Origin: a virus
IMG/VR virus record: IMGVR_UViG_3300028888_000124
Location: 2,407-66,406 of that record
Length of the DNA: 64,000 bases
Strand: one strand, 5' to 3'
Numbering within the stretch: position 1 is the first letter of the stretch; each line of letters begins with the position of its first letter. Positions 8,848 to 58,936 of this stretch are shown one piece after another. Under the pieces are notes generated by a model. It saw only the letters and a list, made by a program, of their open reading frames with translations. It did no database searches and had not been told where the DNA came from. A program made the translations under genes and the position numbers.

Positions 8848-9258
8848 ATGAATAAAGTTATGATTATTGGCAGGTAGACCGGTGATCCAACCCAGGGTCA
8901 GGGCGCTACACCCTGCGCCAACTTTTCCGTCGCGTCCGACACGCGAGTCAAAGGAAAAGACGGCGAATTCATCACCAATTTTTACCGCTGCACCGCATGG
9001 CGCGGCCAGGGCGAAAACTGCATGAAATATCTCCATAAAGGAGATCGGGTTTCCATCATTGGTGATCTGGTGCTGCAGTCCTATGTGGACATCAAGGGCC
9101 AGGAGCGCTACAGCATGCAGGTAAGCATTACCGATATCGAATTTCTGAGCGCCAAACGCTCAAAAGACGAACCGCAGCAATCACAAGCATCACGAGCAAG
9201 TTCACAGCCAACGGCAGCGGCAGTCACCGATGATAACGAGGATGACCTGCCGTTCTAA
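8848..9258 (+). CDS. ssb: single-stranded DNA-binding protein (SSB); in-frame TAG at 8875
   Basis: N-terminus MNKVMIIGR(TAG)TGDP matches the canonical SSB start MNKVILIGRLTKDP; acidic C-terminal tail DDLPF; RBS AAAGGAAAACAAGC. Confidence 0.85.
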
Positions 9259-46847: not shown

Positions 46848-47420
46848 ATGAACGATTTGATGATCAACCTGTTTATCCCCCGTACTTAGGATGGTTCCGC
46901 AGCCGCGATTGCCGCCCACATCTTTGCCAAAGAAAACAGCGGCGCTGTATCGATTGTGCGGTACGAAGACGAAGATGAGCTAAACAAAACCGTGGGAGAA
47001 TTGATGCGTCATATTACCGTTGCCGATGGATATGACGCGCCGCAGCCAAGCCGCCGTCTTGTATGGATCGTAGGCGAAGGCGTCAATGAAGATATCCACG
47101 ATGAACTGATATGGTTCGCCACCAACAAACCTGGGAGATCATATGCTCAAGCCTTTGACGGAAGTTTTCTCTATATAACGGAAGTGTGGAAACCAGACCA
47201 TCTTTTCAGCCTGCACCGATTCTTTTATCATCTGCGCTTATAGGATGACATAGGGAAAAACATTGAAGACCTCTACAATATGCTGGACGCTGACGAGTTT
47301 GAACACCTGATGGCTTATCTTCTGCAGGAACATCCGATGGCAGAAGACGTGACCAAAGAAGATTATGTGCTTAACCTGTTCGTTGAGCACGAGAAGAAAC
47401 GGAGAGAATCTTACATTTAA
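46848..47420 (+). CDS. hypothetical protein with 2 in-frame TAG codons (46887, 47241)
   Basis: RBS AGAGGTGA then ATG at 46848, in frame with track ORF 46956..47243. A coding-like continuation after the TAG at 47241 runs to a TAA at 47418. Confidence 0.45.
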
Positions 47421-47553
47421 ACCACCGTGAGGAAACGCTGCGCCGCGCAGTCGATTGGAAGCAGGGTCTACGTGGGCAAAGTAAGTGTGTTCATCCCCCT
47501 CGTCGTGGAGGAAAATTGTGTTGCCTCGTGACGGCTTTATGGTGTGTCCGTCC

Positions 47554-47658
47554 TTATTCGAAGATAAGTTTGAACAGGATGCTGATCTACTGCTTCACAG
47601 CTTCGATCAGCAGAGCCCATCCAAGATCAGACAGAAACTTGCGAATCTTATCTTTCAC
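47554..47658 (-). CDS. small hydrophobic peptide (34 aa, GTG start; TAG at 47587 read as sense)
   Basis: RBS GGGGCGGAGGTGATTCAA then GTG; consensus promoter immediately upstream. Confidence 0.35.
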
Positions 47659-47753
47659 TTGAATCACCTCCGCCCCAGGGCTTGCGTTTCAATTGCAGCC
47701 AATATGTAAACAATCGAATTCACCCCTGGCTGGTTTCCTCACGGCTTATCTGT

Positions 47754-47782
47754 ATTTTATCATATATCACCAATATTTTCAA
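47754..47782 (-). promoter_or_regulatory. near-consensus sigma70 promoter TTGAAA, 17 nt spacer, TAAAAT (leftward)
   Basis: Hexamers and spacing read on the minus strand. Confidence 0.5.
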
Positions 47783-47891
47783 CCACCGCAGAGAAGCAAG
47801 CAGATTCTCGTTCAGCCAGAAGATCTCTGCACTTTATCCTCAAGACACGTAAATGCCAGGTTATTGCTGCGAAGTGTCTTTTGTCTTGGGC

Positions 47892-47999
47892 TTATCCGAA
47901 GATTAGCTTACCAACAAACTATACGATCAAGCCGGTTATTACGCCGATCACAATCGCACGGGTGTCTCTTTGAAGTTTTTTCTTGGTTTTTTTCTTCAT
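47892..47999 (-). CDS. small hydrophobic peptide (35 aa; TAG at 47919 read as sense)
   Basis: RBS GAAGCGGAGGTGGTATCT then ATG; Lys-rich N-terminus and a single TM. Confidence 0.35.
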
Positions 48000-48072
48000 A
48001 GATACCACCTCCGCTTCAACATTATCAATCTATTTATAAATGGCTGATCGGGCTTCTCTGCGGCTTATCCAT

Positions 48073-48101
48073 ATAATATCATACTTTATCCAATGTTTCA
48101 A
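48073..48101 (-). promoter_or_regulatory. near-consensus sigma70 promoter TTGAAA, 17 nt spacer, TATTAT (leftward)
   Basis: Read on the minus strand. Confidence 0.5.
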
Positions 48102-48209
48102 TTACCGCCGGGTGTGTGTCTGTGCCGAACAGCCGACTGGCTTGTACTGCCCGACATGAGTTGTGCTTTGTGTTTCGTGGATTTGTGCTGTGTTAAGTGA
48201 AGTGTGTTA

Positions 48210-48296
48210 TCACTTTAGGATAGCAACAATCTACCTGGCAACCGATACCAGGAGTGTGGCTACTTTGATGATCCGGTCAAAGACTTTCTCGCTCAT
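48210..48296 (-). CDS. small hydrophobic peptide (28 aa; TAG at 48231 read as sense)
   Basis: RBS AAGAGGAGGCGGGCAAA then ATG. Confidence 0.35.
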
Positions 48297-48413
48297 TTTG
48301 CCCGCCTCCTCTTACGCAAAACACTGCCGCTGCGTTCACAGCGGGTTCTATGTCAACAGCCGTCCACCCGGCGGCTTACAAATATTATAGAAAATAAAAA
48401 GGAATATTGCAAG

Positions 48414-48935
48414 ATGAAAGAAACTTTTGTTTGCGCCGATCTTCACTTCTGCCACGAAAATATCATCAAGTATGAGAACCGCCCCTGGCTCAACGCAGAC
48501 GCCATGAACTGGGGCTTGATCCATAGCTGGAACCAGGTTGTTTCCAAGGATGATAAGGTATTCGTTCTGGGCGATGTTGGCTTCTGCGGCAAAGAAAAGA
48601 TGAGCGAGCTGGTTCATAAGCTGAACGGCTACAAGATTCTCATAATGGGCAATCATGATAGAGGACGGCCCACCCACTGGTGGAGAGAGGTCGGCTTCGA
48701 GGATGTTTCCAAGTATCCCGTGATCTATCACGAGCATATTGTTCTCATGCATGAGCCGCCCACGTATTTCAATGACGCCACGCCGTACTTCTATGTGTAC
48801 GGCCATGTTCATGGATGCCCTGATTATCAGGATCACACCGAGCATTCCGCCTGCGTCAGTATTGAGCGGCTGAATTATGCGCCCGCCAAACTGGATGACG
48901 TGATCAGTGGTTCGGCTTATACACATCAAAAATAA
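48414..48935 (+). CDS. calcineurin-like metallophosphoesterase
   Basis: CADLHF, GDVGFCG and GNHD motifs. Confidence 0.7.
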   Translation: MKETFVCADLHFCHENIIKYENRPWLNADAMNWGLIHSWNQVVSKDDKVFVLGDVGFCGKEKMSELVHKLNGYKILIMGNHDRGRPTHWWREVGFEDVSKYPVIYHEHIVLMHEPPTYFNDATPYFYVYGHVHGCPDYQDHTEHSACVSIERLNYAPAKLDDVISGSAYTHQK

Positions 48936-49039
48936 AACCGCCACGGAGCGACAAGCAGATGTTCGTTCGGCTGGAAAATCTCTGCAAGCTTATACCCAGT
49001 GTTCGTGAGATTGTGAATTGTGGAACGTGTAGTAAGGAA

Positions 49040-49147
49040 TTACTTCCTCATAAAACGGTCATACAACCAAGCAGCTATCTATCCGCCAAGGATACCCACC
49101 GCGAGGTCGTAGCCCAGCTTCAGAATTGCGTTTACAATAATCAGCAT
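49040..49147 (-). CDS. small hydrophobic peptide (35 aa; TAG at 49079 read as sense)
   Basis: RBS GAAAGGAAGGGAGG then ATG; single TM and a basic C-terminus. Confidence 0.35.
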
Positions 49148-49229
49148 GAGTAGCGACCTCCCTTCCTTTCACTTCCGGTTGCCCGGTTTCTATATCAACA
49201 GTCGAGCGGCCTCCCCGTGGCTTATCCAT

Positions 49230-49258
49230 ATTATATAATAAACTCCTTGGTTTTTCAA
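49230..49258 (-). promoter_or_regulatory. consensus sigma70 promoter TTGAAA, 17 nt spacer, TATAAT (leftward)
   Basis: Read on the minus strand. Confidence 0.55.
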
Positions 49259-49354
49259 CGCCCTGTCTCTGGATAACCTGTTTGTCGTCCAAGACAGGGT
49301 ACTTCATTTTTTTCTTGATAATTATCTAAGAAAAAATGAAAAAGTTGCCCTTCT

Positions 49355-50871: not shown

Positions 50872-50982
50872 TTAACGCTTCATATATTCTACCTTTTCCG
50901 TGCTGGCCGTTTGGCTGCGAACCTCACAAACAACCGCAGGGTATCCCATCAGAACCATCATAAGTGCATAACCAATGCTCAT
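50872..50982 (-). CDS. small hydrophobic peptide (36 aa)
   Basis: RBS GGAGGTAAAGTAATA then ATG; transcript driven by the promoter at 51147..51175. Confidence 0.35.
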   Translation of the reverse strand: MSIGYALMMVLMGYPAVVCEVRSQTASTEKVEYMKR

Positions 50983-51399: not shown

Positions 51400-51600
51400 T
51401 TACCGAAGTCGCACGTCAGTCGTACTCTCTATGCTTTTCTGCGTCCCTATGGGCTACTCTTTCGAGAACGGGATCGTAACGGTTTTCCCATCTAAGGACT
51501 TCATAACCGTGTGGCTGCCCTTGCCACGTTTCGGGATGGCGGTCCATCCCTACTTAACCAGCATAGAGATGACTTCCTTTGAAGAATAGGTTTTCTTCAT
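51400..51600 (-). CDS. hicA: HicA-family mRNA interferase toxin (66 aa) with 2 in-frame TAG codons (51550, 51454)
   Basis: RBS GGAGGTGAGGCCG then ATG. Translation VK(TAG)GWTAIPKRGKGSHTVMKSLDGKTVTIPFSKE(TAG)PIGT matches HicA motifs L.K.GW...KGSH...vT.P.H...lp.Gt. Promoter TTGACT, 17 nt spacer, TATGCT lies upstream. Confidence 0.6.
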
Positions 51601-51664
51601 CGGCCTCACCTCCAAATGAAGCATACACGATGAAGAATTCAAAGTCAAGTCCCGGGCGGGATTT

Positions 51665-51695
51665 ATATAAAAAGCTCCGCTGTGTGGAGCGGAGC
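51665..51695 (-). terminator. hairpin ctccgct-ccacaca-agcggag plus CTTTTTA on the minus strand
   Basis: Read directly from the sequence. Confidence 0.4.
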
Positions 51696-51699
51696 CGTT

Positions 51700-51830
51700 G
51701 GATGATCAGTCTTCTTTTTCTACGATGGTCACGCAGAAATCAATAAAGCCGATGATTCCAGCCGGTGCTACTAACCAGATCGGGAGGATTCCGCAGATAC
51801 CTGCGAAAGAGATCCAGTTAGAGACATACA
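51700..51830 (-). CDS. possible small membrane peptide; start uncertain, tandem TAG TAG near the 5-prime end
   Basis: Hydrophobic minus-strand ORF ..WISFAGICGILPIWLVAPAGIIGFIDFCVTIVEKED. Confidence 0.2.
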
Positions 51831-52025
51831 CCAGCCACCTTAGATATTTCTACTACCTCAATAGACATCACCCGACCTTTCTTTTTAGAGGGCGAGTAAT
51901 GTCATTATAACAGAATCGTTTGGTTAAAACAAGCTTACCAACGCAAGCCAAAACAAAAAAATAGGGGCCCCTTCATTTTAGAAGAGGCCCCAAATAATTA
52001 TATCGGAAGAAAGAGAGGAATCAAT

Positions 52026-53210
52026 TTGACGGTTGACACTTGTAATGAATCTTTATATACTAAAGATGAGTTGGAAGAAGTAGCCAAGATGACTGCCAGC
52101 GCGGTTGTCCAAGAACTGCTTCATTCCAACGTGAACCTTGACAACTCCATATCTGAGATTATAAATGTGCCAGAAAGGACAAATGATATGGCACGTATCA
52201 AACAAAGAGTTGTCCTCCCGAACGGACAGACCGTATGGTGCACAGGAGATACAATTGGAGACGCTATTACAAACCTCATGTCGCATATCGCTATAAACAA
52301 TAACGCGCCAAAACGAACAACCCCAACCTTACAGGAATACGGAGACAAATGGTATCACCTATACCACATCAAAAAAGTAAAGTGGAATACCGCGCAAAAC
52401 ACTCGTATCTATTTGGACAAACATATCTATCCGATAATTGGAGAAAAGCATCTTGATGAAATCACATTTGACGATATTCAATCTGTTTTCAACTCCATGG
52501 ATAGCTTGGCACGATCAACTGTTGAGAAGGTACAAATTGTCCTCAATCAAATTATGAAGAATGCAATAGAAGATGGCTACATCGAGAAAAACGTTATGTC
52601 ATCTTCTCGGTATGTGTTAAGCAAGAAAGTTAAGCAGAGAGAAGCTCTATCTACATCATCCGCACAAGATGTTATCAGACAGCTGGACACCCTGGAACCA
52701 AACGATAAAATTCTTATGGCACTCATTATCTTCACAGGACTTCGGCGTGGAGAAATTCTTGCGCTGACTTGGGACGATATTGATTTTGAAAACAAAGTAA
52801 TCCACGTAAAGCACAGCGTCACATTTAAAAATAACCAACCAATCATCTGCGGGACAAAAAGCAAGTCCGGCGTAAGAGACGTTCCAATAATAAAGGAGCT
52901 AAGGGAAATACTGAGCGCGGAAGAAGATAAGCATGGCTACATCATAAAGAATCATAAGTTCCCGGACATGCCGATTACAGAAAAAACATATCAGCGGGCA
53001 TGGGAGCGAATCAAAAAAACAATTGATCTTCACAATGCTACAGCCCATGTATTCAGACACACTTTTGCCACAATGATGGAGCCACACACAGACATAAAAA
53101 CTCTGCAGACAATAATGGGGCATGCGGATATTCAAACAACAATGAACCGATATACGCATAAAATTGATAAAAATATACAGGCACTTGCAGAAATCGATTC
53201 TTTTGTGTGA
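52026..53210 (+). CDS. int: tyrosine integrase (phage integrase family)
   Basis: AHVFRHTFAT (HxxR) and NRYTH catalytic Tyr motifs. AT-rich and TAG-free, compositionally distinct from its neighbours. Confidence 0.85.
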   Translation: MTVDTCNESLYTKDELEEVAKMTASAVVQELLHSNVNLDNSISEIINVPERTNDMARIKQRVVLPNGQTVWCTGDTIGDAITNLMSHIAINNNAPKRTTPTLQEYGDKWYHLYHIKKVKWNTAQNTRIYLDKHIYPIIGEKHLDEITFDDIQSVFNSMDSLARSTVEKVQIVLNQIMKNAIEDGYIEKNVMSSSRYVLSKKVKQREALSTSSAQDVIRQLDTLEPNDKILMALIIFTGLRRGEILALTWDDIDFENKVIHVKHSVTFKNNQPIICGTKSKSGVRDVPIIKELREILSAEEDKHGYIIKNHKFPDMPITEKTYQRAWERIKKTIDLHNATAHVFRHTFATMMEPHTDIKTLQTIMGHADIQTTMNRYTHKIDKNIQALAEIDSFV

Positions 53211-55558: not shown

Positions 55559-55781
55559 CACTATCACCTGATTCCGCGTCTTCGTTTTCTGTCTCTTCCT
55601 CTGGAAGGTCTGCCAACGGGATCATTTCGTTTGTTTCCTCATATTCCCGATCCTCATCGGCTGGATCAATTGCGTCCTCATATTTGACGCCGTCCCGCGT
55701 AATATATACCCCAATGTCTGAATACGTGCGGTACAGCGTCACACCGTCACTGCGAACCACATAAAGCTCTTTCACGATCAT
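55545..55781 (-). CDS. small acidic protein
   Basis: ORF track. Confidence 0.3.
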   Translation of the reverse strand: MIVKELYVVRSDGVTLYRTYSDIGVYITRDGVKYEDAIDPADEDREYEETNEMIPLADLPEEETENEDAESGDSDDPE

Positions 55782-56952
55782 GCTGATTCCTCCTTCTTAT
55801 TTCTCTCTTCGAAAACCATGGAAAATCTCTTTGCTCCTTCGGAAACAATTCCCTCACTAACTGTTCCATTTTACAAATCGTTCTGAACGCCATAAAATTT
55901 CTTGCGTATGCCCGCCAGGAAATGAAGGATTGAAAAACTTCAAGCGGTGTCATCTTTCCATTTTCCACCCGTGTCTTTAACCGTTTCAACTTCCGCCTTT
56001 CTACCACAACGCTGTGCTTATATATTTTTTTGATTACCTTGCCGCTGTTCGTCAGGTAGAATCGCGCTTTAAGAAAAGTGAATCCATGGGTCAGCTTCAC
56101 AATCTGCGTTTTCTTTGTATTCATCACAATGCCAAGCTCGTCGCAAATCCTGCGAATCTCTTTGAGGCAATGCCGCAAGTATTCCTTGGATGGGTGAATC
56201 AGGTATCCGTCATCCATATATCTTCCGTACCATTTGATCCTGAGCACTTCCTTCACGTAATGATCCAAACGGTTGGCGGAGGCAAGCGCCTATATCTGAC
56301 TTACCTGGCTGCCCAGTCCCAAACCTTTATCGCCAAACATGTGAACCATTTGCATAGCGACACTCTTTATTTCATTGTCCGAAACTGCCCGGTCGATCAC
56401 CTGTTCTATGACGGCGTGTGACACATTATCAAAGAATTTGCTGAAATCAAAAAGCAGCACATATCCATCATTTCCGTATTTCCGGTAATACTGGCGCAGG
56501 TGCGTTTCCATTCGCCTGATCGCAAATGCGTATCCCTTGTTCTCCATTGACGCGCCGTTATCATATATAAAAGAGCGTTTGACGGCGGGAACCAGGGCGT
56601 AATCGCAAAGACAGCGCTGTACACCACGCTCTCGAACTGTCACGCTTTTGATGTGGCGGTCATGGCCGCGTTCCCTGATATCAAACTCATAGAATTTATC
56701 TGGCTTGAATTTGCGTTTCTTCATTCTCCGGTAGCATTTTTCCACTTCCGTCGGAGCAAAGACGATTTGCTTTTGAATGCTGGCCTTCCATCTTACGCCA
56801 CGAGTGCATAGCTGAAAAGCCCGATAAAGGTGAGGATAGCTGAAAACCTGATCGTATGTGCCGATCTGGTTTTTGTTATATTCTTTCTATTTCTGTTTTC
56901 TCTTTTGAATACGGCGCTGGTATCTCGCCTCATGCCTTTCTTTGCTGTTCAT
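55747..56952 (-). CDS. DGR reverse transcriptase (motif 4 LGSQVSQ of the SQ type, YMDD); 2 in-frame TAG codons (56887, 56290)
   Basis: Fuses track ORFs 56290..56745 and 55747..56268 across the TAG at 56290, which sits in the S(P/Q)LLAN motif, and extends to the ATG at 56952 after GGAGGAAGA. RT motifs 1 to 7 are recognisable. Confidence 0.85.
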
Positions 56953-57180
56953 TCTTCCTCCAAAAATGGGCAGTCGCCCACGTCTGATAGATGGCTTTCC
57001 GCGATAGACGCATAGAACCACTGGGCATGAAACAAAGGGTTCGCCATCGACCTTTGCCATGCAAGAAGCGTCCGCCCAGGTTCGTCACGACTGATATTTA
57101 CGCTGAATGCGAAGGTTATTTCCTCCTTCTCTCCACCCGCGCTGATTTCGCAAAGCCTACTTTGTCTGACGGAGAGGATC

Positions 57181-57301
57181 CGAAGACCACGCCATTCGTG
57201 TTGGTCGGACCGTTATTGTTGTTGTTGCCGTTGTTGTTCACATTCACGAAGTTCGAAGTCGAATTCGCAGAACGGGTCCACCAGTTGTTCGTAGAGCCGG
57301 T
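57181..57301 (-). repeat. DGR template repeat (TR); AAC/AAT-rich, about 120 bp
   Basis: Aligns to VR1 and VR2 with all mismatches at TR adenines. Confidence 0.8.
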
Positions 57302-57336
57302 CTCATACAGGAAATAACCTCAATTAAAATGATAAA

Positions 57337-57750
57337 TTAAAATGGTTCGTTCAAAAACGACCAACGCTTTTTATCTGTTTCCATTACGCCTTGAATCAGG
57401 CGCATCTCTTCATTGATTTTTTCACTCCATTGCTGTATAATATTTTTGTCAATACCGAATCTGCCGTCTGCGAGGCCGATGAAACAGTCCAGCTTTTTCA
57501 GTTCACCAATGGCTTTCATGAAATAATCTTTTCTGGTCTGCAGCTCTCCTGCGTTCGTCGGCCAGATGTTATTGGCTTCGATCACATGACCGCAGGTATC
57601 AAGCGCTGCGTCGATGATTCTTTGCCCCAGGCCGAAGCGCTGTCCCTTTGGAAAATGCCCATACTGCACAAGCGTGAAGGCTGCCTATTCGCGGGCTTGA
57701 TAAATAAATTGCGTTGATGGTTCTGATCGTAGACTTTTAGGGACTGACAT
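57337..57750 (-). CDS. avd: Avd-like DGR accessory protein (four-helix-bundle protein family); in-frame TAG at 57685
   Basis: QRFGLGQRIIDAALDT..IEANN pattern of the four-helix-bundle family. ATG at 57750 after AGGAGG, in frame with track ORF 57337..57669. Sits between the target gene and TR-RT. Confidence 0.7.
57373..57405 (+). promoter_or_regulatory. plus-strand copy of the TCTGTTTCCATTAC motif followed by the hairpin cgcct-tgaatc-aggcg, inside the minus-strand avd gene
   Basis: Read directly from the sequence. Confidence 0.3.
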
Positions 57751-57769
57751 TTCCTTTTATCCTCCTGCG

Positions 57770-57800
57770 AAGAGTGGGGAGGGACGGAGCCCTCCCCGAT
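57770..57800 (-). other. GC-rich stem-loop ggggaggg-acggag-ccctcccc immediately 3-prime of VR1 (DGR homing-associated hairpin)
   Basis: Inverted repeat. An analogous hairpin, ggggcggcg..cgccgcccc, follows VR2 at about 58960..58990. Confidence 0.5.
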
Positions 57801-57817
57801 TTTAAGATTTTAGATTA

Positions 57818-58936
57818 TCAAATGCAGAAGCCGAAGACCACGCCATACGTGCCGGTCGGACCGTAATTGCCGCTGCCGCCGCCGCCGTACACACTCACGA
57901 AGTACGAAGTCGAAAACGCAGAACGGGTCCACCAGGAGTTCGTAGAGCCGGTTGATGTAAACCTGACCCTGCTTGAGCTATCATCAAAAATGCCGGTATA
58001 CTGCACGCCGCTTGTTTCTTTCAAATAGTTGCCCGTAAAACATACTTCGCGGGATGACGGGATCCACAGCTTGTCGCTGCTTGTTTTCTATTCCCCAGCG
58101 TTGCTGTTGGCGGTTGCGTCCCAATAGGTTTTGTTGACCGCCTTGATAACGCCTTCCGCCTGCAGTTCGGAAGGAAGCTGACTGAACACTGTATCGTTCA
58201 GCCAATACCGCATAGTGTTGGTTCCGCTTGCGCCCCAGCCATCGGTCATGCTGCTTCCCATTGCGTGGGTGCCATATTGCTGGGCAAGGAGCCACGTCAT
58301 TTTTGCGTTTCCGCCGCTGGTCAGTTCGTCCGCGTTTTTGGCTGCCAGCGTAATAATATAATTCGTTCCATTCAGGTTGATGTACGCCGTGTCCCCCACG
58401 TTGTATTTGGAATCAAACGTCCCATCCTCTCCGGCGGCAATGATTTGTGCCCAGGTATCGGTAATTGTTACGAAGCTTGTTTTCGGATAGGAGCTGATGG
58501 GAAAAATCACATTGCGGTATGCTTTCCAGTTGCTGGCAGCTTTATAGGTATCGACAAGATTGTCGGTCACATAAATACCCGCCTGGCCTTTTGCAATAGG
58601 AGTGCTGGCAAATGCGTCATAATTGTTCAACGTGCAAGCTTGGGCATTTTCCAGAATCACGCCCTTTAAAGCGGAGCACCCTGAAAAGGCAGACTGGATT
58701 GCACACTTGCCGCCAATTCTTACCGTTTCCTATGCGGTGCAGTCACTAAAAGCAGAAGAACCCAAAGAGGTCAGAGTGGGAAAATTCACGTCCTTCTACG
58801 TGGTCTGCTTATACATTGCGTATTGACCGAGCGTAGATATGCCGTCGTCCACAAACTCTGTCAGCGTATGGGCGATCAAAGCATCCAATGTTCCTTGGTC
58901 TCCCAGCGTTGCTTTGGTGTTGGTATATGTTGCCAC
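57818..58936 (-). CDS. DGR target protein 1: LRR (BspA-type) plus a C-terminal variable domain ending GVVFGFCI; 3 in-frame TAG codons (58796, 58730, 58088)
   Basis: Fuses track ORFs 57818..58024 and 58088..58660 and extends to the GTG at 58936. It is a paralogue of the C-terminus of the giant gene. VR1 lies at 57832..57952. Confidence 0.7.
57832..57952 (-). repeat. DGR variable repeat 1 (VR1)
   Basis: Matches TR except at TR adenine positions. Confidence 0.8.

Follow-up and report, generated by a model that had tools for sequence, protein, structure and literature searches.

Partial support for toxin-like mRNA cassettes with paired ends, one obligatory internal TAG each and no visible antitoxin

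What might four very short genes, each under its own promoter and each broken by a single TAG codon, be doing against the direction of the surrounding transcription? The question is raised by positions 47,554 to 49,258 of a 64,000-nucleotide stretch of viral DNA (IMG/VR record IMGVR_UViG_3300028888_000124, positions 2,407 to 66,406; hereafter the window), where a preliminary description had noted a cluster of leftward genes for small hydrophobic peptides. We refer to these four units as A to D. They are paralogous cassettes with a common promoter, GATAAGCC start and leader motif, and they belong, as self-contained 'moron' cassettes, to a TAG-recoded phage-like lineage from gut or rumen-type metagenomes. 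The analysis partly supports a family of end-paired, toxin-like mRNAs that carry an obligatory internal TAG and have no visible antitoxin.

Coding units with one TAG each

All four open reading frames (ORFs) were found on the minus strand where they had been described, each with a GGAGG-type Shine-Dalgarno sequence (SD) 6-9 nt before the start codon (Table 1). The textbook promoters announced for A, B and D are present, and C, for which none had been listed, has one of comparable quality. Reading through the TAG gives peptides of 28-35 amino acids (aa), while a stop there would give 21-26 aa, so that the predicted truncation at about 22 aa and extension by 6 to 12 residues to a TAA or TGA were borne out. 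Promoter-like sites in the region show no excess over chance (14 vs 12.9 expected). The composite TTGAAA-N17-TAnnAT-N3-GATAAGCC occurs four times against 0.03 expected, and the four promoter sites are homologous repeats of one another (repeat family D1). Cassettes C, B and A are arranged head-to-tail, and the -35 element of C lies directly against the ATG (48414) of a rightward metallophosphatase gene.

Relatives were collected by two routes: a metagenome scan with the promoter-plus-leader pattern, which gave contigs L029 and L030, and homologues of the neighbouring metallophosphatase (66-88% identity), which gave L044/45, L046, L047-50, L058 and L060. Eight further distinct cassettes, located in L029, L030, L044, L046, L047, L058 and L060, brought the total to 12 with A-D; they include C-type cassettes in two clades, an A-type leader followed by another peptide (L046), a B-type cassette (L058), D, and a further type (L030). 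In all 12, a single in-frame TAG falls about two thirds of the way through the ORF, at codon 18-27 of 28-35, with 6-13 codons between it and a closing TAA or TGA. The peptides fall in about six unrelated-looking types that can no longer be aligned, and the TAG is retained in all of them, invariant while the flanking codons diverge almost completely. At the background of ~1.9 TAG per 1000 codons in a heuristic gene set, ~0.06 TAG would be expected per cassette ORF, an enrichment of ~17-fold over the genome average to which the 12 cassettes, being related, do not contribute as independent cases.

Comparison of homologues disclosed how the codons on either side of the TAG evolve. Between C and its counterpart in L058, five of the six post-TAG sense codons have changed, all synonymously (ATT/ATC, GCT/GCG, ATC/ATT, CTA/TTG, AAG/AAA), and the final stop has changed from TGA to TAA; before the TAG, C differs from its homologues by 4 synonymous and 6 mostly conservative changes. 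Ahead of the TAG, the codons that differ between B and the B-type ORF of L058 comprise 8 synonymous and 3 non-synonymous changes; the L058 ORF keeps the TAG itself and conserves the C-terminal KLIFG after it. KLIF after the TAG is likewise common to A and B, with third-position differences. This synonymous evolution of the post-TAG codons indicates that the TAG is read through and that the peptides are 28-35 aa long. At the level of sequence comparison, synonymous change and conserved ORF length in the relatives establish A-D as real coding units.

The best 15-residue Kyte-Doolittle window of the cassette peptides scores 1.8-3.0 and their net charge ranges from 0 to +8, values that would place them among small (<60 aa) hydrophobic or membrane-active peptides. 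A single transmembrane helix, as described for all four at the outset, suits B, D and several relatives, which have uncharged runs of 15-27 residues, whereas the A, C and L046 peptides carry internal charges and look amphipathic. A stop at the TAG would yield a fragment of 17-26 residues; in most cassettes it would cut the uncharged run of 15-27 residues down to 9-22 and remove the basic residues at the C-terminus.

The cassette RNA and its known counterparts

Each cassette specifies a predicted RNA of ~260-330 nt with complementary ends. The 10-13 nt after TAAGCC are perfectly or near-perfectly complementary to a segment 240-320 nt downstream, forming a helix of 9-13 bp (P1) that begins 4-5 nt past the predicted transcription start; the 3' segment lies just before a GGTT/A-U-rich tail and, in B and C, just before the -35 element of the next cassette. 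By our estimate, a perfect 10-nt complement would arise by chance in a search space of this kind with a probability of ~0.004 per unit. P1 was present in the minimum-free-energy (MFE) fold of 13/13 unit sequences, namely the 12 distinct cassettes and the deleted A copy of L029, and recurred in MFE and centroid folds of whole units such as A. In an alignment of the P1 strands, 92% of cells were paired, compared with 36-64% when the partner was slid by 1-3 columns; both-sided changes occurred in 10 of 13 P1 pairs, and none of 500 shuffles reached the observed covariation score. Among the P1 cells, G-U pairs outnumber A-C mismatches (10 vs 4), which favours a helix in minus-strand RNA over a DNA repeat. 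Fold z-scores against shuffles were -4.0 for A, -3.4 for B, -3.2 for C and -1.8 for D, those of A, B and C being significant.

Upstream of the ORF, a conserved leader motif, CTGTTGAYATAGAAC, precedes a hairpin with a co-varying stem, and conservation in C-type units is much stronger in the leader than in the ORF. The cassettes showed no conserved anti-SD element, and Rfam, searched at gathering thresholds and to E-values up to 10, returned nothing relevant to the cassette RNA. Three further roles were weighed for the leader motif CTGTTGACATAG and discarded, since reading the sequence showed no -10 element for a second promoter, no SD for a mini-ORF and no complementarity for pairing with the TAG region. 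Conservation confined to the nucleotide level had been named beforehand as the sign of a non-coding function. That pattern applies to one half of the unit: since the leader and end helix are conserved as RNA and the ORF as protein, each cassette is both a structured RNA and a coding gene.

The relatives further revealed how cassettes are exchanged. Their number and order vary at two positions flanking the phosphatase gene, and L029 (780-1320, minus strand), compared with window positions 47552-48060 and 48921-49336, is a natural recombinant in which the promoter of B is joined to the leader of A, ORF B is lost and cassette D is absent. Cassettes thus recombine via their common promoter and leader, and the variable number and order, together with the losses in L029, mark them as accessory and exchangeable. 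A DNA similarity search of GenBank phages and PLSDB plasmids gave no match to the cassettes, IMG/VR pattern scans with the four cassette motifs gave chance matches or none, and a pattern scan of GTDB genomes gave 11 matches, all by chance and inside unrelated genes. In IMG/VR the metallophosphatase neighbour has relatives of 33-41% identity only, which are cassette-free, and the distant relatives L051, L052, L055, L059 and L061 have no cassette of the A-D family.

Two details of the transcripts may be recorded here. The 3' untranslated region of C (48115-48205, minus strand) spans ~90 nt and is C/A-rich and G-poor, for example CACGAAACACAAAGCACAAC; this character, and not the sequence, is kept across the C-type units of L029, L044, L058 and L060, and the segment might serve as an unstructured spacer or in the loading of Rho. 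The end of ORF B with the bases that follow (GGA TAA GCC; 47892-47900) is identical to the 9-mer GGATAAGCC of the B and D transcription starts (48062-48070), and ORF A ends in the similar GAA TAA GG, a likeness that may be a trace of cassette duplication.

Table 1. Positions and sequence elements of the cassettes and of other features of the window and related contigs
Feature	Position (strand)	Properties	Sequence
Promoter A	47782-47754 (-)	10/12 consensus match	TTGAAA-17-TAAAAT
Cassette A	47419..47782 (-)	RNA start ~47749; GTG start 47658; TAG 47589-47587; TAA 47556-47554	RNA start AUAAGCC
ORF A	47554-47658 (-)	34 aa with TAG read through; 23 aa if stopped at TAG; 10 residues after TAG	SD GGAGGTG; peptide MKDKIRKFLSDLGWALLIEAVKQ-TAG-ISILFKLIFE
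P1 of A	5' strand 47745-47733; 3' strand 47436-47424	local GC hairpin before 3' strand	5' CCGTGAGGAAAC; 3' GTTTCCTCACGG
Promoter B	48101-48073 (-)	10/12 consensus match	TTGAAA-17-TATTAT
Cassette B	47780..48101 (-)	RNA start ~48068; ATG 47999; TAG 47921-47919; TAA 47894-47892	
ORF B	47892-47999 (-)	35 aa with TAG read through; 26 aa if stopped at TAG; 8 residues after TAG	SD GGAGGTGG; peptide MKKKTKKKLQRDTRAIVIGVITGLIV-TAG-FVGKLIFG
P1 of B	5' strand 48064-48052; 3' strand 47797-47785	3' strand abuts -35 of cassette A	5' CCGCAGAGAAGC; 3' GCTTCTCTGCGG
Conserved 3' hairpin of B	47781-47831	repeat D2	
Promoter C	48412-48384 (-)	10/12 consensus match	TTGCAA-17-TATAAT
Cassette C	48099..48412 (-)	RNA start ~48379; ATG 48296; TAG 48233-48231; TGA 48212-48210	
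ORF C	48210-48296 (-)	28 aa with TAG read through; 21 aa if stopped at TAG; 6 residues after TAG	SD AGGAGGCGG; peptide MSEKVFDRIIKVATLLVSVAR-TAG-IVAILK
P1 of C	5' strand 48375-48365; 3' strand 48114-48104	3' strand abuts -35 of cassette B	5' CCGCCGGGTG; 3' CACCCGGCGG
Leader of C		motif and hairpin	CTGTTGACATAGAAC; CCGCTG/CAGCGG
Promoter D	49258-49230 (-)	11/12 consensus match	TTGAAA-17-TATAAT
Cassette D	48934..49258 (-)	RNA start ~49225; ATG 49147; TAG 49081-49079; TAA 49042-49040	
ORF D	49040-49147 (-)	35 aa with TAG read through; 22 aa if stopped at TAG; 12 residues after TAG	SD GGGAGGT; peptide MLIIVNAILKLGYDLAVGILGG-TAG-IAAWLYDRFMRK
P1 of D	5' strand 49221-49213; 3' strand 48948-48940	3' strand followed by GGTTTTATTTTT, which ends against the metallophosphatase stop codon	
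Leader of D		motif and hairpin	CTGTTGATATAGAAAC; CCGG/CCGG
Repeat D2 copy in D	48936-48986		
P1 of L046			5' CCGTAAGGAAAC; 3' GTTTCCTTACGG
P1 of L058, B-type			5' CCACAGAG; 3' CTCTGTGG
P1 of L047			5' CCATCGGACG; 3' CGTCCGATGG
P1 of L030			5' GCCGTCGGGCAA; 3' TTGCCCGACGGC
Leader hairpin of L060		stem	CCGTTG/CAACGG
Leader hairpin of L044		stem	CCTCT/AGAGG
Leader hairpin of L030		stem	CCAG/CTGG
HicA toxin gene	ORF 51400-51600 (-); unit 51400..51648	PF07927 HicA_toxin, E = 1.4e-11, 44.8 bits vs cut-off 27; TAG at codon 17 (51552-51550) and codon 49 (~51456-51454)	
HicA promoter	51648-51620 (-)	terminator 51381-51358	TTGACT-17-TATGCT
Tyrosine integrase	52026-53210	TAG-free	
Gene with early in-frame TAG	33719-35611	codon 4	
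Gene with early in-frame TAG	30360-31451	codon 4	
Gene with early in-frame TAG	23102-23941	codon 11	
Gene with early in-frame TAG	22071-23090	codon 9	
Gene with early in-frame TAG	7835-8830	codons 11 and 16	
Gene with early in-frame TAG	49387-49701	codon 11	

The paired ends have counterparts among type I toxin mRNAs. In hok mRNA, pairing of tac with fbi joins the ends and makes the full-length message stable and poorly translated. The mRNA for AapA1, a 30-aa toxin, is 253 nt long and is locked by long-distance pairing of its 5' and 3' ends (PMC5416894), which keeps the full-length molecule stable but translationally inert until its 3' end is trimmed (PMC5416894, PMC6733600, PMC9841398). With aapA1/IsoA1 of Helicobacter pylori and hok/Sok of enterobacterial plasmids, the cassettes share a peptide of ~30-50 aa that acts on the membrane (as the cassette peptides presumably do), a strong constitutive promoter (here constitutive-looking), an mRNA of ~250-400 nt with paired 5' and 3' ends, and multiple paralogues per genome. 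Unlike these systems, they have an obligatory TAG within the ORF, no detected antisense RNA gene and no sequence similarity to either, and they reside in Clostridia-type phages, whereas the known hosts are Proteobacteria and Campylobacterota. Type I toxins of Firmicutes prophages (Fst/par, TxpA/RatA, BsrG/SR4, C. difficile CD0956.2/RCd10 and Pfam Hol_Tox) form independent prophage units opposite to the neighbouring genes (PMC6563280, PMC5961336). The cassettes share with them this orientation and small single-helix peptides with terminal charged residues; the prophage toxins, in contrast, are accompanied by an antitoxin RNA that converges on or overlaps them and is transcribed from a promoter of its own, and none was detected for the cassettes.

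Neither an antisense gene nor a promoter for one could be detected. In none of the 13 unit sequences did the opposite strand hold a sigma70-like site of at least 9/12, nor was any site conserved in position, a weak test that rightward read-through or unusual promoters could escape. The leader motif does not recur in inverted form elsewhere in 43.5-52 kb, and no Rfam antitoxin family matched. Searches of ten peptides against Pfam, NCBIfam and PHROGs, Fst/Ldr and Hol_Tox included, gave nothing above a curated cut-off, and tblastn of peptide D against GenBank phages gave E-values of 3 or worse. Because no antisense RNA gene was detected and no curated family matched, we regard the cassettes as type-I-toxin-like in mechanism and not as family members. 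The type I likeness proposed in the preliminary description therefore survives in the covariation-supported 5'-3' closing helix, as in hok and AapA1, and fails as to membership of Fst, Hol_Tox or any other toxin family. The term holin-like had to be dropped: no endolysin occurs in the examined flanks, and the cassettes lie outside any lysis cassette, among genes for RuvC, RNA ligase, vWA, metallophosphatase, DUF5662 and integrase.

The recoded genome and its other units

The window is part of a ~70 kb contig, of which the compared stretches occur as identical copies in five metagenome assemblies; two of the identical contigs measure 69,949 and 69,952 nt, and L021-L025, being identical, hold no variation to compare. 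Related contigs extend to 95 kb, so the complete genome may be larger than this 70 kb contig. Between 1 and 51 kb lie rightward replication and nucleotide-metabolism genes (including AAA_24 ATPase, single-stranded DNA-binding protein (SSB), DnaB/primase, Pol III alpha-like, NrdD/NrdG-like, dUTPase, FolD, YopX, RuvC, RNA ligase and metallophosphatases), and gene direction is leftward from 53.5 kb on. The genome codes for tyrosine recombinases, and the annotated parts of the window showed no capsid, tail or lysis genes.

Clearly functional genes of the element are interrupted by in-frame TAG, including SSB (8848-9258; codon 10, 8875-8877), RuvC and the NrdD-like gene (codon 4), which indicates that TAG is read as an amino acid. 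The SSB TAG aligns with the Leu of GRLTKDP in B. subtilis SsbA, a conserved hydrophobic position. Such alignments at Leu or hydrophobic positions in SSB (GR-L-T) and HicA (D-L-P and G-T-L) suggest that the residue is Leu or another hydrophobic one, and it may be other than Gln. TAG occurs in 27 of 113 heuristic genes and falls first within the first 30 codons in 18 of these 27, a near-start clustering that looks like an early translational gate on many genes. Among the same relatives, TAG sites in other genes swap with CAG, AAG, AAA or CTT (CTT in L051; AAG or AAA in L046 and L029; the window sites compared include 46887 and 47241), and one HicA site alternates with CAG. Neither ARAGORN nor Rfam found a tRNA gene, and hence a suppressor tRNA, in the readable 66.4 kb (the window plus 2.4 kb upstream, L056 1-2438).

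Borges et al. proposed that recoding gates lysis-related membrane proteins in TAG-recoded phages and that a recoded small transmembrane protein controls lysis by membrane depolarisation, and remarked that recoding could sense co-infecting recoded phages (doi 10.1101/2021.08.26.457843). In-frame TAG and a TAG-free integrase are common to those phages and the present element. Unlike their case, the cassettes stand alone outside a lysis cassette, with host-type promoters, a toxin-mRNA-like fold and a single invariant TAG per gene, and are joined by an orphan HicA; no suppressor tRNA was found in the available sequence, and the inserted residue is possibly not Gln. Our literature search returned no account of TAG-interrupted toxin cassettes.

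The HicA gene lies ~2 kb from the cassettes and outside their family. L029, L030 and L060 keep both of its TAGs and carry a third, at a codon that is CAG in the window. The HicA transcription unit holds no second ORF that could be a HicB partner, the genome beyond the unit not having been searched for HicB. A known toxin, lone and TAG-interrupted, beside the peptide cassettes suggests a common logic.

Two other units, which we call E and F, had been grouped with the cassettes at first. Both have the promoters described for them, but neither is of the A-D type or has a single TAG. E (50872-50982; TTTACA-17-TATACT) has neither a TAG nor the GATAAGCC leader, and an end helix considered for it was not recovered in the fold. 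F (start 44533) has two TAGs, and with TAG as sense its frame continues for 265 codons to 43742, antisense to RuvC.

Several neighbouring features were noted in passing. A leftward mini-gene (51668-51906, minus strand) has the promoter TTGTTT-17-TATAAT, a strong terminator (51696-51673) and an ORF (51706-51831) for a hydrophobic, TAG-free peptide of 41 aa, MYVSNWISFAGICGILPIWLVAPAGIIGFIDFCVTIVEKED. In the more distant relative L053 (4800-5570, minus strand), where a serine recombinase replaces the tyrosine integrase, TG-extended consensus promoters precede two leftward units, paralogues of each other, whose 53-aa membrane proteins start MKK-TAG, and one of these units has an 11-nt 5'-3' complement, CATAATGCGGC/GCCGCATTATG. 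By the integrase of L047 (5803-5919, minus strand), a called 38-aa 'gene' ends in a tRNA-like T-arm and acceptor, GGTTCAAACCCTGCCCGCTCCA, which may be the tRNA piece of an attachment site; an E-like promoter and a 35-aa hydrophobic ORF ending at TAG lie upstream of this 'gene'. Finally, 55747-58888 (minus strand) holds a probable diversity-generating retroelement, with a reverse transcriptase (RVT_1, E = 1.3e-13) whose frame is twice interrupted by TAG, an Rfam RT-2 RNA (127 bits) directly upstream of it at 56951-57174, and a DUF6273/BspA-LRR protein (57818-58888) with a Gly/Tyr-rich C-terminus. This reverse transcriptase, near 56 kb, was considered as a lysogeny-expressed defence gene and set aside, since it looks like that of such a retroelement beside its DUF6273/LRR target.

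Explanations and meaning

The explanation that we favour, and to which we give an even chance, is that the cassettes are type-I-toxin-like units lacking an antitoxin, whose full-length product depends on decoding of the TAG; we infer both the toxicity and the conditional decoding. P1 would close the mRNA into a long-lived, poorly translated form, as in the hok and aapA1 mRNAs, and the full-length peptide would act on the membrane. As no antisense antitoxin was found, the TAG itself may be the check on the peptide. A ribosome stopping there would free a fragment devoid of the end of the hydrophobic helix and of the C-terminal basic residues, and the full peptide would be made only in a cell in a TAG-decoding state, so that a membrane-active product would be delivered in the recoded state, that is, in lytic growth or on arrival of a suppressor. 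Its purpose might be host take-over, lysis timing or the exclusion of other recoded phages.

Several points weigh against this explanation. Conditional decoding is an assumption, and a host that always reads TAG would leave no gate; no suppressor tRNA occurs in the window, the preceding 2.4 kb or 11 related loci. L029 is without B and D, and a 73-nt deletion in its ORF A removes the TAG and the C-terminus, so individual cassettes are dispensable. None of the peptides falls in a known toxin family, the best match being that of the L047 peptide to Hol_Tox (PF16935; E = 0.13, 12.5 bits vs cut-off 23.3). The 3' ends are inferred, and C and B have no terminator ahead of the next promoter. The predicted unpaired probability of the SD, 0.11-0.46, amounts to partial sequestration and stands without a suitable control, and the P1 alignment was assembled from predicted partners, which somewhat inflates its pairing counts.

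A canonical type I toxin-antitoxin system, with an antisense RNA missed because it has a non-consensus or phage-specific promoter or arises by read-through of the rightward operon, is unlikely. It would fit the toxin side well (peptide size, strong promoter, structured end-paired mRNA), antisense RNA is likely in lytic transcription because the cassettes lie inside rightward-transcribed DNA, and an overlapping antisense gene would explain why leaders are so much more conserved than ORFs in C-type units; against it stand the empty opposite-strand promoter scan and the lack of a match in the Rfam antitoxin families, and the single TAG per ORF is left unexplained. That last feature also tells against reading the peptides as ordinary small membrane proteins of the phage (modifiers of lysis timing, exclusion or transport, for instance), in which TAG would be a sense codon without regulatory meaning. 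TAG is indeed sense throughout the genome, as its presence in 27 of 113 heuristic genes attests, small membrane morons are common in phages, and the RNA helix may merely stabilise the message; however, the TAG is kept in 12/12 cassettes and elsewhere gives way to CAG, AAG, AAA or CTT, its ~17-fold enrichment is unaccounted for, and HicA, a bona fide toxin gene, has the same feature. We consider this explanation rather improbable. More speculative, and less probable again, is a 'genetic code as antitoxin' system in which the cassettes and the orphan HicA would form an immune sensor of genetic-code change. In the lysogen, host-type promoters would drive constitutive synthesis of the toxin mRNAs, which would be stored in a stable, end-paired form and stay harmless since host ribosomes would stop at the internal TAG; TAG suppression by a superinfecting recoded phage would then at once yield full-length toxins and abort the infection, while the resident phage would be spared in its own lytic growth by antisense RNA from rightward transcription.

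The remaining explanations have little probability. Regulatory leader peptides that sense TAG-decoding capacity through RNA folding or downstream transcription, with the peptide itself functionless, are very unlikely: the TAG position is conserved, the RNA is structured and, as C, B and A run head-to-tail without terminators, upstream translation could affect read-through, but the post-TAG amino acids are under purifying selection, all products are hydrophobic or cationic helices, and beyond D and A there is only a terminator and a convergent gene, which leaves nothing downstream to regulate. The paired ends might instead be DNA-level inverted repeats of a mobile cassette, resembling a miniature inverted-repeat transposable element (MITE) or an integron attC site, as the variable number and order at two hot spots flanking the phosphatase gene and the tyrosine recombinases of the genome could imply. 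This is slimmer still, since the repeats differ and co-vary where transposase or integrase sites would stay conserved, G-U pairs exceed A-C mismatches, the helix starts 4-5 nt past the predicted transcription start, and homologous recombination between promoters explains the L029 rearrangement. Slightest of all is the case for non-coding small RNAs with accidental ORFs. It draws on the RNA-level conservation of leader and P1 and on the deletion tolerated inside ORF A of L029, and conflicts with the synonymous substitution pattern and conserved ORF length, the SD and start kept in 12 cassettes, and the uniformly hydrophobic products.

The covariation-supported structure of the cassette RNA is not represented in Rfam. 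If the peptides prove toxic, the cassettes would be a toxin module without an antitoxin molecule, whose safeguard is a codon that means stop to the host and sense in the recoded phage state. The favoured explanation, if true, would provide a concrete case for stop-codon recoding by phages as a means to regulate dangerous genes. It would also carry the end-locked mRNA design of the toxins hok and aapA1 over to phages of anaerobic Firmicutes, and it would reveal a compact RNA chassis of promoter, end helix and leader into which peptide ORFs can be interchanged.

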